29,757 nucleotides of DNA from positions 1 to 29,757 of the IMG/VR virus record IMGVR_UViG_2534681675_000023; one strand, given 5' to 3'. The stretch's first letter is position 1, and each line of letters begins with the position of its first letter. This DNA comes from a virus (lineage: Duplodnaviria > Heunggongvirae > Uroviricota > Caudoviricetes). Under the pieces are notes generated by a model that did not search any database, was not told where the DNA came from, and was given only the letters and a program-made list of their open reading frames with translations. Shown here piece by piece: positions 17,811-25,322 of the stretch. The position numbers and the translations under genes are program-made.

Positions 17811-18524
17811 ATGAATGACAGTGCTCTGCTCAGAAACTCTTCACTTTTTGTTGCTTATATGGGCTGTCTAGGATGGGGAAGCGCTTATTTCTATGGATGG
17901 GGTACTTCATTTTACTATGGCTTTCCATGGTGGGTTGTCGGGGCTGGTGTCGATGATGTTGCACGAAGTTTGTTTTATGCTGTGACAGTTATCGTTATAT
18001 TCCTTATTGGATGGGGAGTTGGTATTGTTTTCTTTTTGGGCATAAAACAAAAGCGCAATATACAAAATTTGAGTTTTATCCGGCTTTTTCTCGCGATATT
18101 GCTGCTTTTTATTCCACCTGTTCTGGAGTTTTCGGTAATTCATCAGCATGTTGAGCCAGATGTACTGATTTTCTGCATTCTTGCTGCCTTTACAATCACG
18201 CTTTTTGTCAGGTCTGGAAGAAGACTTGTTTCAGTCAAATGTTTTTCGGAAATGTCTTTTATTCGCCATCACCGAATTGAGTTCATGATGGCTGGGTTTA
18301 TGATTTATTTCTGGGCATTCTCTCTTATTGCCGGTTGGTACAAACCACAGTTTAAGAGGGAATATCAGGCGATCCACTATGAGAATGTATGGTATTACAT
18401 TATTGCGCGTTATGATGATCGTCTGGTGTTATCGAAATCATACAGGAGTGGGGGTAAGAAATTCGTTATATTTAATAGCGGAAATATTAATGATTTTGAA
18501 ATTAATACTATCAGAGTGCGTTAA
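17811..18524 (+). CDS. Multi-pass membrane protein (moron at the post-Q position)
   Basis: 237-aa ORF in AT-rich DNA; about 4 predicted TM helices plus a C-terminal soluble tail; candidate own promoter (TTGACT at 17743-17748). Confidence 0.75.
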   Translation: MNDSALLRNSSLFVAYMGCLGWGSAYFYGWGTSFYYGFPWWVVGAGVDDVARSLFYAVTVIVIFLIGWGVGIVFFLGIKQKRNIQNLSFIRLFLAILLLFIPPVLEFSVIHQHVEPDVLIFCILAAFTITLFVRSGRRLVSVKCFSEMSFIRHHRIEFMMAGFMIYFWAFSLIAGWYKPQFKREYQAIHYENVWYYIIARYDDRLVLSKSYRSGGKKFVIFNSGNINDFEINTIRVR

Positions 18525-18698
18525 AATTTCTTGAGTAATGAAGATTTTTACTGCCCGGCATTGAGCGGTTTTTTTATGCCAGAAAAATGGTGTGGTACAT
18601 AAAATGTGCTGGTGGTTATTAATACCGGTCTTTCAGCTTGCTGGCTTTTTCGACAAGAGTTATTGGTATGTCACGTTAACCAATAAAGAGAAAAAGAC

Positions 18699-18896
18699 AT
18701 GCTAAAACAGCAGGATATGACCGAAACAGCCAGAGTGGTGTTTAATGAATTAAGCGTCACTGAACCGGCAACAGTTGGGGAAATTGCGCAGAATACTTAC
18801 CTTTCACGCGAACGCTGCCAGTTAATACTGACCCAGCTTGTGATGGCGGGTCTGGCAGATTATCAGTTCGGTTGTTACAGACGCCTTCCGCAGTGA
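18699..18896 (+). CDS. Small putative HTH/winged-helix protein upstream of methyltransferase
   Basis: 65-aa ORF; segment TVGEIAQNTYLSRERCQLILTQLVMAGL resembles a DNA-binding helix-turn-helix. Confidence 0.45.
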   Translation: MLKQQDMTETARVVFNELSVTEPATVGEIAQNTYLSRERCQLILTQLVMAGLADYQFGCYRRLPQ

Positions 18897-19046
18897 AGGC
18901 TTTTTACTTTGTGGTAATGGGCGGCTGGTGGGTGTTAGCGGCACCTGCCAGCCATCTGCTCATGTGTTGAGGTCACAAGCAAACCTCAGGCCCATCTGCT
19001 TTGCGCAAAAGCGGTATGAGCCTATCAGAGAAGTGCTTATTGATCT

Positions 19047-20132
19047 ATGGCTAATACTGTAAAAATATCCAGTTGTGAGTTAATCAACACTGATTGCCTG
19101 GAATTTATCCAGACCTTATCGGAAAACTCTGTCGATCTTATAGTCACAGACCCGCCATATTTTAAAGTGAAGCCCGAGGGCTGGGATAACCAGTGGAAGG
19201 GCGACGATGATTACCTAAAATGGCTGGACCAGTGTCTGGCTCAGTTCTGGCGGGTACTGAAGCCTGCCGGAAGTCTTTACCTGTTTTGTGGTCATCGCCT
19301 GGCATCTGATATCGAAATCATGATGCGTGAGCGCTTTAATGTGCTGAACCACATTATCTGGGCGAAGCCGTCCGGACGCTGGAACGGGTGCAACAAAGAA
19401 AGCCTGCGGGCGTATTTCCCGGCAACAGAGCGCATTCTGTTTGCCGAACATTATCAGGGGCCATATCAGCCAAAAAATGCCGGCTATGCGGCAAAGGAGC
19501 GCGAGCTTAAACAACACGTCATGGCCCCGCTGATTTTTTACTTTCGTGATGCGCGTGAATCACTGGGAATAACGTCCAAACAGATAGCGGAAGCCACCGG
19601 AAAGAAAAACATGGTGTCGCACTGGTTTGGTACCAGTCAGTGGCAGTTACCGAACGAAGCTGATTACAGAAAACTGCAGGCGCTGTTCGCGCGTGTTGCA
19701 GAAGAAAAACACCAGCGTGGGGAGCTGGCAACGCCACACCAACTGCTGGTCAGCACATACAGTGAACTGAACCGGCAATATGCCAGTCTGCTTGAGGAAT
19801 ACAAATCTCTGCGGCGTTATTTTTCTGTATCGGCCGCCGTTCCTTATACGGATGTCTGGACGCATAAGCCCGTACAGTATTATCCGGGTAAGCATCCCTG
19901 CGAAAAACCGGCGGATATGTTGCGTCAGATAATTTCTGCCAGCAGTCGTCCGGGGGATGTGGTTGCGGATTTTTTTATGGGATCGGGGGCAACAATAAAA
20001 GCAGCAATGGGATTGGGGCGTCGCACGATTGGGGTTGAACTTGAGTCCGGGCGTTTTGAACAAACAGTTGGTGAAATATTGGTGCTGAACGATAAATTGC
20101 GAAATGCACAATTAGATAAGAACAGGAGCTAA
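19047..20132 (+). CDS. DNA methyltransferase (amino-MTase, beta class; N6-adenine or N4-cytosine)
   Basis: 361-aa ORF; motif IV DPPY (IVTDPPYF) near the N-terminus and motif I FxGxG (FFMGSGAT) near the C-terminus; no adjacent restriction endonuclease candidate. Confidence 0.9.
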   Translation: MANTVKISSCELINTDCLEFIQTLSENSVDLIVTDPPYFKVKPEGWDNQWKGDDDYLKWLDQCLAQFWRVLKPAGSLYLFCGHRLASDIEIMMRERFNVLNHIIWAKPSGRWNGCNKESLRAYFPATERILFAEHYQGPYQPKNAGYAAKERELKQHVMAPLIFYFRDARESLGITSKQIAEATGKKNMVSHWFGTSQWQLPNEADYRKLQALFARVAEEKHQRGELATPHQLLVSTYSELNRQYASLLEEYKSLRRYFSVSAAVPYTDVWTHKPVQYYPGKHPCEKPADMLRQIISASSRPGDVVADFFMGSGATIKAAMGLGRRTIGVELESGRFEQTVGEILVLNDKLRNAQLDKNRS

Positions 20133-20249
20133 TCCTCGATTAATATCTAAGCCAAGCAGGATGCTTGGAAGTTCTGATATATTCTTATCGTTTTTCGGTA
20201 TTTAAAACTGATTTTCGCTGGTTGCGAAAGCACGTGGTCGGGCACTGCG

Positions 20250-20287
20250 TTCACACATGCAGGAGGGTGTGAAGCCAGCTTTTTTTC
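20250..20287 (+). terminator. Putative intrinsic terminator downstream of methyltransferase
   Basis: TTCACAC-(10 nt loop)-GTGTGAA, then GCCAGC and a 7-8 T run. Confidence 0.4.
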
Positions 20288-20652
20288 TGTGTATTCAGAT
20301 GGCGTTCTGATTCTATAACGAGTTACGTGGACATCAGGGATGGAGAGAATAGGAACGCCATCTTAATACATTTTCCCCGTTTATTTGATATATCTTCCGG
20401 ATAAGGGATTAGGTCTGGTTTTTTATGTCATTCAATAACGCTCTTCTATACTGTATACAATACTTTATCCTGGCAGTGTGTTTAAAACCTGAACTTATCC
20501 TTTGTTTCGTTTATAGACAGAAGGGTTAATATCGACTTATCATCAGCAGGATGGCAACAGATGTGTAAGCAGCTGGTCACCAGTTATACTTCAGTGGTAC
20601 TTCTGAGTGCTTCTCTCCGTGAAATGATTATCATCCAGATGACAGGAGTAGA

Positions 20653-20931
20653 GTGAATATTGATGATATTTCCAGGTGCTCCAGCTTGTTGCAGCGTATT
20701 GAGGATGTTAATGCTGAACGAGCCAGGGCCTTTAGTCGTTTGACAGTTATATTTTCTACCCCTGATCGCCTTTCAGGAAAGAACATTGTTTTATTAAACA
20801 GTGATGCCATCCATAAGGTTTTTGAAGAGTTCATGGCTGCTAATTCAGAATTGCTGGCTCTTGTTGAGGAATACAACGAGATAGCCAGCCGTGTCGGTAT
20901 GGATGAATTCAACGTCATACTTCGTGGATAA
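20653..20931 (+). CDS. Hypothetical protein
   Basis: 92-aa ORF followed immediately by a strong terminator. Confidence 0.45.
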   Translation: MNIDDISRCSSLLQRIEDVNAERARAFSRLTVIFSTPDRLSGKNIVLLNSDAIHKVFEEFMAANSELLALVEEYNEIASRVGMDEFNVILRG

Positions 20932-20954
20932 AAACATGCTTCATATTTTCTGTT

Positions 20955-20979
20955 AGCTCGCTACGGCGAGCTTTTTTTG
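20955..20979 (+). terminator. Rho-independent terminator
   Basis: AGCTCGC-TACG-GCGAGCT followed by TTTTTTT. Confidence 0.7.
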
Positions 20980-21112
20980 TATCTGAGCCACACCTGGCGC
21001 ACATCAAAAACACAGAGCCTTTCAGGAGGTGCTTACGGGATTGTCAGTGTGACTTTCACTGTGGGCTGGTAACCATCTGGCGCAGGCTCGTCTACGCAAA
21101 GGAAAAGTCACG

Positions 21113-21538
21113 ATGTTAGGTATTTTCAAAAAGAAAACCCGCAAGGCCATCACAGAAGTGAAGAAGATGGAGAACCGTGATGCGGTGGAGGCGACCGTCT
21201 GGGGCGCATATTCCATTGCATATGCCGACGGCACCTGCGATGCGAAAGAAATCGCAGTACTGGAGAAAACTATTGCTGCGCTTCCTGCTTTTGCACCGTT
21301 CTCTGGTGAGATTGCCCAGATGAGCGCCAATATCCGCGCCCGTTATGAAGCGTCACCGCGTAGTGCGAATGCGCATGCATTGCGTGAGCTGGCTGATGTG
21401 GCGGGGACAACTGAGGCGGTTGACGTGCTTTGCCTCTGTCTGGATATCGCTGATCAGGATGGCATTGGTCCGGATGAAGAAGCGCAGCTCAAGAAAATTG
21501 CACAGGCGCTTCAGTTACCACTGGAGCAGTATCTGTGA
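21113..21538 (+). CDS. TerB-like (tellurite-resistance TerB family-like) protein
   Basis: 141-aa ORF; acidic helical protein resembling TerB-domain proteins (by eye); directly upstream of lysis genes. Confidence 0.6.
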   Translation: MLGIFKKKTRKAITEVKKMENRDAVEATVWGAYSIAYADGTCDAKEIAVLEKTIAALPAFAPFSGEIAQMSANIRARYEASPRSANAHALRELADVAGTTEAVDVLCLCLDIADQDGIGPDEEAQLKKIAQALQLPLEQYL

Positions 21539-21687
21539 AAAGTGCGGGCCTTGTGCTGGCTGCCATCCTGTTGTTTCTGGTAGTGGCAGTGGATTTCACT
21601 GGATGGCTGATGTCGGTACTGGCTGATGGTGTGCTGGTGGCGATGGTAACGGTCTTACTCTGGCCTTTACTTCGCAAATCTGAATAA
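21535..21687 (+). CDS. Small two-TM membrane protein (50 aa), translationally coupled to TerB-like gene
   Basis: GTG overlapping the upstream TGA (GTGA); encodes VKSAGLVLAAILLFLVVAVDFTGWLMSVLADGVLVAMVTVLLWPLLRKSE. Confidence 0.45.
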   Translation: MKSAGLVLAAILLFLVVAVDFTGWLMSVLADGVLVAMVTVLLWPLLRKSE

Positions 21688-21697
21688 ACAGCCTACA

Positions 21698-21758
21698 AAA
21701 GGTATCTGCGGGTACCTTTGATAAAGTTTTTTAGGGCCGCTGATGGTCCTTTTTATTT
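21698..21758 (+). terminator. Putative tandem stem-loops / terminator before the holin gene
   Basis: AAAGGTA-TCTGCGGG-TACCTTT, then AGGGCC-GCTGAT-GGTCCT followed by TTTTTATTT. Confidence 0.45.

Positions 21759-23355: not shown

Positions 23356-25322
<1,967 letters not shown>

Follow-up and report, generated by a model that had tools for sequence, protein, structure and literature searches.

A predicted late-operon cassette of a lambdoid prophage with a winged-helix gene, a conserved structured leader RNA and an M.EcoGII-family adenine methyltransferase

Known M.EcoGII-type enzymes and the methyltransferase of the window

The M.EcoGII-type family of DNA adenine methyltransferases already serves as a biotechnology reagent. 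A member of this family is encoded, downstream of a gene for a winged-helix protein of 65 amino acids (aa) and an intergenic spacer, on the 29,757-nucleotide (nt) stretch of Caudoviricetes DNA that constitutes positions 1 to 29,757 of the IMG/VR record IMGVR_UViG_2534681675_000023 and that is referred to here, as a whole, as the window. In PMC5778455, M.EcoGII is described as methylating adenine in any sequence context, while M.EcoGI and M.EcoGII are reported to be silent in the lysogen, where they leave no methylation signature, and to be deleterious if constitutively expressed; the same paper assigns a very large family to well-defined E. coli prophages and names the enzyme of phage 1720a-02 as a very similar relative of M.EcoGII. 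According to PMC11551740, all reconstructed ancestors methylate DNA as well as RNA, and direct RNA sequencing revealed no discernible motif on RNA for M.EcoGII, Anc291 or SUPREM.

Comparison of the window with these systems established that its methyltransferase is an ordinary member of a known phage adenine methyltransferase family and, by itself, adds little more than a further allele to it. What is new is the leader RNA between the two genes, an element that is without a match in Rfam 15 and that had been missed in an earlier, sequence-only reading of this DNA. We regard it as rather probable that the winged-helix gene, the leader of approximately 130 nt and the M.EcoGII-family methyltransferase gene together form a cassette within a late operon, which serves late anti-restriction methylation and in which the leader restrains translation of the enzyme.

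The sequence-only reading had described a small open reading frame (ORF) of 65 aa upstream of a methyltransferase gene, and both ORFs, of 65 aa and 361 aa on the + strand, were recovered at exactly the positions given (Table 1). Its assignment of the larger product to the beta class was borne out, as the protein matches Pfam PF01555 (N6_N4_Mtase) with E = 7e-43 and 147.5 bits against a cut-off of 26.7, and carries DPPY (motif IV) at residue 35, FMGSG (motif I) at residue 310 and a target-recognition domain between them, this being the beta-class order. The match extends over residues 29-340 and 219 profile positions, which corresponds to an insert of about 90 aa, and among solved structures those of beta-class enzymes, RsrI, CcrM and MboIIA for example, come closest. 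The order of DPPY, target-recognition domain and FxGxG is the same in M.EcoGII and M.EcoGI from E. coli O104:H4 prophages (PMC5778455, PMC7544214, PMC11551740), and so are the prophage location and the lack of a restriction partner; the passages that term searches brought up from these papers do not mention an upstream winged-helix gene or a leader RNA for either enzyme, and no described RNA or protein partner of M.EcoGII-type genes was found in the literature.

Identity to M.EcoGII amounts to 295 of 345 residues (86%), a stretch that includes the helix-turn-helix target-recognition domain and the charged linker, although small errors in this comparison are possible as the M.EcoGII sequence was taken from a machine-read supplementary PDF (Table S1 of PMC11551740). 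By region, the two proteins share 95% in the catalytic N-terminal part, 80% in the linker, and 81% in both the target-recognition domain and the C-terminal part. Identity was 91% to L24 of phiP27 and 86% to the methyltransferase of phage 1720a-02; the corresponding values for Anc291, a reconstructed ancestor, and for SUPREM were 86% and 71%. By sequence, then, the window methyltransferase belongs to the M.EcoGII family, and because it is approximately 86% identical to a characterised non-specific adenine methyltransferase, its specificity can be predicted as non-specific for adenine context; the earlier statement that the specificity is unknown was in this respect too cautious, given the 81% identity in the target-recognition domain. 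As a separate observation, similarity to other phages ends at about 20059-20078, inside the 3' end of the gene, and a mosaic joint therefore lies within the gene itself (about 20059-20132).

DNA searches located both genes of the cassette in phiP27, in 1720a-02 and in many Stx2 phages, where they lie between Q and the transfer RNA (tRNA) and stx genes, and cultured phages in which the family occurs include phiP27, SfV, mEp460 and phiNP. Of 5426 complete E. coli genomes, 2142 (about 39%) carry the winged-helix gene together with the leader.

The leader RNA between the two genes

The spacer between the winged-helix gene and the methyltransferase gene measures 150 nt and is conserved as strongly as coding sequence within E. 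coli, while it remains recognisable from Klebsiella to Plesiomonas. As judged by covariation among aligned copies, it is a conserved structured RNA, the core of which spans about 130 nt and comprises four helices, designated P1 to P4 (Table 1). The window copy folds with -61.7 kcal/mol (z = -4.48), and single copies from distant genera fold alike; in the long-range helix P2, the 3' strand is formed by the 13 nt (-1 to -13) that directly precede the methyltransferase AUG.

In an alignment of 36 leader copies made by MAFFT from sequence only (A3), 94% of cells were paired as compared to 28-43% with slid partners, and 12 pairs, accounting for 43 cells, had changed on both sides, as compared to 9.7 cells in shuffles, none of 500 of which reached the observed value. 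A covariance model derived from A3 (R1) found exactly one + strand match, at the expected place, in each of 51 related loci. A pooled alignment of 66 distinct leader copies (A6) had 91.5% of cells paired, compensatory changes in 31 of 40 base pairs, including all 10 pairs of P2, and 274 double-change cells against 70 +/- 8 in shuffles, counts which lean towards the model since A6 was fitted to it. When the same divergent copies were aligned by plain MAFFT, P1 stems were seen by eye to be wholly different in sequence yet complementary, and RNAalifold applied to a MAFFT alignment of the most divergent copies recovered the invariant pairs alone because the hypervariable stems were misaligned. Comparison of the spacer, in its window and Proteus copies, with the families of Rfam 15 at E values up to 10 gave no match above 19 bits, and all matches fell far below the gathering scores; literature searches likewise yielded no account of this RNA.

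Additional pairings were encountered within the leader. An alternative long-range helix, UGGGC:GCCCA, is possible in essentially every sequence, but both of its sides are invariant and covariation is thus uninformative in this case, while P3 holds a conserved C-A mismatch of which the C would pair in the alternative helix. This mismatch and the alternative pairings hint at two leader conformations, and the invariant junctions AAUGGGCG and GGCCCA, taken together with the alternative pairings, suggest a conformational switch. A further helix between CUGUGA, located just past the winged-helix stop codon, and UCACAAG in the 5' strand of P2 could form in 91% of cells, displayed no compensatory changes and is unproven. 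A 44-aa ORF within the spacer (18928-19062) was discarded as a gene, its frame being broken by indels between genera.

Table 1. Features of the cassette and its surroundings, in window coordinates
Feature	Position	Strand	Basis or remark
Q antiterminator gene	16885-17556	+	Pfam PF06323 Phage_antiter_Q, E = 3.6e-89; RefSeq 'bacteriophage antitermination protein Q'
pR'-like late promoter, TTGCAA-17-TATATT	17564-17592	+	Consensus match alone; 8 nt past Q stop
Short two-hairpin late leader ending in tR'-like intrinsic terminator	17599-17668	+	Stem 17647-17662, T-run 17663-17668
237-aa predicted membrane protein gene (phrog_1521)	17811-18524	+	Insertion between tR' and cassette
Partial second copy of post-tR' region, degenerate hairpin	18553-18626	+	BLASTN/alignment against the single copy in locus L025
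Conserved block CTTGCTG-N9-11-CAGAGTTAYNTGTRTG upstream of winged-helix gene	18636-18676	+	Alignment of 40 upstream regions, many genera
65-aa winged-helix protein gene (phrog_331)	18699-18896	+	ORF, conservation, AlphaFold2, fold search
Weak hairpin and T5 overlapping winged-helix stop codon	18883-18905	+	Terminator scan; -9.5 kcal/mol, z = -0.7
Conserved structured leader RNA of methyltransferase mRNA	18917-19046	+	Folding, covariation, covariance model
P1, long hairpin	18917-18963	+	Part of leader RNA
P2, long-range helix	18970-18981 with 19034-19046	+	3' strand abuts methyltransferase AUG
P3, helix enclosed by P2	about 18988-18995 with 19016-19023	+	Part of leader RNA
P4, hairpin enclosed by P3	18996-19002 with 19008-19014	+	
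M.EcoGII-family beta-class DNA adenine methyltransferase gene, 361 aa	19047-20132	+	Pfam, alignments; RefSeq WP_000024338.1 'DNA-methyltransferase'

The winged-helix gene and the late-operon setting

The 65-aa gene was located upstream of the methyltransferase gene in almost all of 80 related viral loci, with a gap of 152-160 nt in nearly all, and across these 80 closest viral loci its product shows 98-100% identity with few exceptions, as compared to 87-100% for the methyltransferase. Recurrent polymorphisms within the ORF fall almost exclusively at third codon positions, the protein therefore being under strong purifying selection, and 18699-18896 represents a real protein-coding gene. In a data set with one genome per species, the methyltransferase gene followed the 65-aa gene in 37 of 39 loci, in 36 of them with a spacer of 134-153 nt, the carriers including E. 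albertii, Salmonella, Klebsiella, Citrobacter, Enterobacter and Buttiauxella, together with Proteus, Providencia, Mangrovibacter, Mixta and Plesiomonas. Database relatives of the protein number 334 across the Enterobacteriaceae and are labelled as TrmB-family or DprA-like winged helices.

The sequence-only reading had likened the 65-aa product to a controller-type helix-turn-helix protein, an assignment that was not upheld. The AlphaFold2 model is a canonical winged helix (H1-S1-H2-H3-wing) with a predicted local distance difference test score that averages 89.7, the neighbours returned by fold searches are winged-helix domains, and the sole Pfam match, to TrmB, is below threshold; a match to HTH_3 (Xre), as would characterise Xre-type controller (C) proteins, was not found in Pfam. 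A role as a C protein was rejected on account of the winged-helix fold and the lack of any endonuclease. A role as a reader of N6-methyladenine akin to that of the DpnI domain, an idea taken from PMC11037411, was also considered and set aside, as fold searches gave generic winged-helix neighbours alone. The highly conserved phrog_331 protein is nonetheless now placed in a clear functional neighbourhood.

A conserved block precedes the winged-helix gene in every genus that possesses this gene, and could be a binding site or an element of the 5' untranslated region; an endonuclease operon that C-box operators at this place might control is not present. A sigma-70 promoter within the block was rejected as it lacks a canonical -10 hexamer and the promoter scan makes no call. 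The winged-helix protein may act on the leader RNA, or on this DNA block upstream of its own gene. The hairpin and T5 that overlap the stop codon of the winged-helix gene were not retained as a defining part of the cassette, being weak, specific to the E. coli lineage and absent in Klebsiella, Buttiauxella and others.

The window derives from a lambdoid prophage of E. coli. Prophages of several complete E. coli chromosomes match this region with 100% identity, strain D217-5 being one carrier of this prophage and strain MFDS1022581 another; in the latter the prophage adjoins rspB, its RefSeq-annotated context comprises 44 kilobases (kb), and the gene order runs from the integrase through an exonuclease, CI/Cro-type regulators, a DUF968 protein, RusA and Q to the lysis, head and tail genes. 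On the + strand of the window, Q is followed by a promoter-like site, a terminator hairpin with compensated stem changes, the cassette, holins and the endolysin, so that computationally all components of a lambdoid late operon are present on one strand. The promoter-like element also follows Q in loci L025, L015 and L037 (alignment A1), and in the same alignment the terminator stem varies between loci with compensating changes (CCCGC/GCGGG, CCACC/GGTGG and CCTG../..CAGG). The late-leader RNA, predicted at about 70 nt, folds with -24.1 kcal/mol (z = -4.2), and a hairpin with a T-run, unrelated in sequence, lies upstream of the cassette in almost all genera examined.

This arrangement resembles that of the pR'-tR' transcripts of lambdoid phages (lambda 6S RNA; StxS, PMC7547250), in which Q, a late promoter, a short structured RNA and an intrinsic terminator are likewise associated, and in lambdoid phages as in the window accessory genes follow pR'-tR' at the 'moron' site (PMC4104026), which in Stx phages is known to lie downstream of pR' (PMC4104026, PMC7547250). 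Unlike StxS, the window RNA has an unrelated sequence and a predicted length of about 70 nt as compared to 258 nt. In the loci examined, the Q gene ahead of the cassette belongs to one of at least three families (PF06323, PF06530 and the phiP27-type Q), and the cassette is therefore a portable module occupying the 'moron' site downstream of pR'. The predicted transcript at 17596-17667 may be a constitutive small RNA like StxS of Stx phages; this segment gave a full-length match to the Salmonella small RNA isrJ in Rfam, at 23.4 bits against a gathering score of 37. As this score is below threshold, and as isrJ in its published location follows the anti-repressor-like gene anrP and does not directly adjoin a Q-like gene (PMC4825925), its identity as isrJ was not relied upon.

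Between tR' and the cassette lies a gene for a 237-aa protein, which matched phrog_1521 in PHROGs and had no match in Pfam or PADLOC, and which is absent where Q directly abuts the cassette. The post-tR' region recurs behind this gene as a partial second copy with a hairpin that folds weakly (-6.2 kcal/mol, z = 0.25), and from comparison with the single copy this duplication is interpreted as the scar of the insertion of the 237-aa gene. At that insertion spot, phiP27 has a gene of the GIY-YIG nuclease family (L003, 3652-4881).

Proposed function, competing explanations and surrounding genes

The cassette is best described as late and Q-antiterminated, and would not represent a decayed restriction-modification system. 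In the lysogen, sequence and the published data on M.EcoGI and M.EcoGII would have transcription from the promoter after Q end about 70 nt on, at the terminator, leaving the cassette silent, while upon induction, by analogy with the biology of lambdoid phages, Q-modified RNA polymerase would pass the terminator into the cassette and then into the lysis genes. With P2 pairing the 13 nt upstream of the AUG, translation of the toxic enzyme may be held low or gated. The enzyme, to judge from its approximately 86% identity to M.EcoGII, would methylate adenines of phage DNA during replication almost or entirely irrespective of sequence context, which would make the progeny DNA resistant to many restriction systems of the host. 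The likely function of the methyltransferase is to protect progeny phage DNA from restriction by broad methylation, and the leader RNA probably limits translation of the enzyme. The sequence-only reading had offered both protection of phage DNA from restriction and an epigenetic role; the former is the best supported, while the latter is unlikely in the lysogen because the gene stands behind a terminator in a Q-dependent late operon and because M.EcoGI and M.EcoGII are reported to be silent there (PMC5778455). Dependence of expression on Q would fit that published silence, and the late-operon placement would explain the missing methylome signature of lysogens, yet it would still allow progeny phage, including Stx phages, to be armed against many restriction systems. 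The leader is a candidate regulator common in prophages of E. coli, Shigella, Salmonella and Klebsiella, and may answer how a phage tolerates a methyltransferase that is toxic if freely expressed.

A number of observations weigh against this reading. In the target-recognition domain, 15 of 78 positions are unlike those of M.EcoGII, and the last 17 residues are unrelated to it (361 aa as compared to 349 aa, with the tail beyond residue 344), in addition to the possible errors in the M.EcoGII sequence mentioned above. Consensus promoter matches are no commoner in this region than expected by chance. Apart from the model-fitted nature of the pooled covariation counts, the details of the leader fold are ambiguous, as two partners are available to the invariant AAUGGGCG, the proximal GCUCAU and the likewise invariant, distal GGCCCA, and the fold could repress or activate translation alike.

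It is tentatively proposed, at somewhat less than even odds in our estimation, that the spacer represents a new class of cis-regulatory RNA that gates toxic M.EcoGII-type methyltransferases, with a winged-helix protein as its partner in Enterobacterales or a Com-like zinc ribbon in distant phages. A more specific and less probable version, which we consider unlikely, is an activation switch resembling com-mom of phage Mu, in which binding of the winged-helix protein to the leader would melt the helix and expose the methyltransferase start. Gene order and logic agree with this, since in both cases a small nucleic-acid-binding protein gene lies upstream of a late, toxic DNA-modification gene, the start site of which is covered by RNA structure, here in the form of the 3' strand of P2. 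However, the window encodes a winged helix where Mu encodes the Com zinc ribbon, its enzyme is an S-adenosylmethionine methyltransferase, which Mom is not, and its leader is a four-helix element of about 130 nt as compared to the single stem-loop of Mu. The parallel is one of logic and not of family membership, and binding of the leader by the winged-helix protein is conjectural. This protein might just as well repress, or have DNA as its target.

Distant relatives bear on this question from both sides. A second viral scan was seeded with a Plesiomonas-type methyltransferase, and among the 60 phage loci searched the leader was found upstream of the methyltransferase gene in 47, in most cases directly abutting the start codon. 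Most of these distant loci have no winged-helix ORF, the terminator being followed directly by leader and methyltransferase gene, and because of this the leader RNA is, on sequence grounds, taken to be the older partner as compared to the winged-helix gene. Between leader and methyltransferase gene, an ORF of about 40 aa with the pattern CxxC..CxxC occurs in loci L170 (1358-1483), L177 (about 1319-1435) and L186 (about 1362-1478), and its best Pfam match is Mu Com, which favours a switch of the com-mom type, but at 13.8-16.6 bits this match is under the cut-off of 22.9. Moreover, many phages have the leader and neither a winged-helix nor a zinc-ribbon gene, which argues that the RNA works without them there. 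If a com-mom-like switch were nevertheless true, about 39% of complete E. coli genomes, as well as Stx phages, would carry it, so far undescribed. Variants of the cassette in a state of decay were also observed, at L105 (3154-3313), L012 (3887-4015) and L115 (3001-3069), and these comprise one case each of a lost methyltransferase gene with the winged-helix gene and leader kept, of a leader from which about 40 nt have been deleted, and of a truncated winged-helix ORF.

An orphan methyltransferase of defined specificity, which like Dam or CcrM would have an epigenetic effect in the lysogen and alter host gene expression, is quite improbable. The methyltransferase has a weak similarity to CcrM- and YhdJ-type models, its target-recognition domain deviates from that of M.EcoGII, and the late promoter is expected to be constitutive, with leaky read-through being possible as described for Stx phages (PMC7547250). 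Its scores against the CcrM and YhdJ models are nevertheless far under their cut-offs, and no enzyme of defined specificity comes anywhere near the approximately 86% identity that it shares with M.EcoGII. The gene lies, in addition, behind both a terminator and a leader helix that pairs the ribosome-binding region, and PMC5778455 records no lysogen methylation signature for the M.EcoGI and M.EcoGII enzymes.

We assign a very low probability to the explanation that the spacer functions as DNA, providing operators or a promoter for the winged-helix protein, instead of as an RNA structure. A DNA-binding-type protein is encoded alongside, the spacer contains inverted repeats, and the segments AATGGGCG and GGCCCA are invariant, as is often the case for protein-binding sites. 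Against this, the partners of P2 are up to about 75 nt apart, stems change wholly in sequence while complementarity is kept, the folding z-score is -4.5, and phages without a winged-helix gene have nonetheless kept the element. G-U pairs are frequent (25 of 36 sequences at one pair in A3, for example) and work on the + strand alone; as each would be an A-C mismatch on the opposite strand, the fold belongs to the + strand.

A remnant or variant of a Type II restriction-modification system controlled by a C protein, with its endonuclease lost or located elsewhere, can be dismissed as exceedingly improbable: while a small DNA-binding-type gene directly adjoins a Type II-like methyltransferase gene, as for C.AhdI and C.Esp1396I, and the top PADLOC model is MTase_II, the small protein is a winged helix without an Xre-type match, no cognate endonuclease adjoins the methyltransferase gene or is found in the window, in the 44-kb context or in the inspected neighbourhoods of other genera, the pair occupies the Q-to-lysis position of a phage late operon in every neighbourhood examined, and distant relatives dispense with the small gene while keeping the methyltransferase and leader RNA. 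In this regard the sequence-only reading, which had noted the lack of a restriction partner and had named a cognate endonuclease nearby in a longer context as a refutation, was confirmed, as Pfam and PADLOC returned no endonuclease or defence protein among the neighbours, RefSeq annotates no restriction endonuclease in the 44-kb context of the identical prophage, and the genes called in the loci from Klebsiella and Buttiauxella include no nuclease.

The neighbours of the cassette, as assigned by Pfam, PHROGs and PADLOC, are the 237-aa membrane protein, a 92-aa protein, a TerB-family protein and a DUF3927/TciB-like peptide. The last three (the 92-aa protein matching phrog_2873) occupy 20133-21700, which is the position of the tRNA and stx genes in Stx phages; tRNA genes were not found anywhere within the window. 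A promoter-like site (20514-20543) and a terminator-like hairpin (20955-20972) were noted in the same interval. Directly after the endolysin gene lies an IS21-family element (23356-25322) with istA and istB, both frameshifted in RefSeq, and the prophage may therefore be defective. In the early region, the RefSeq annotation of the identical prophage includes a zeta-toxin-family gene with an adjoining hypothetical gene on the - strand (12202-13552) and a truncated Hok/Gef gene at about 14580-14730.

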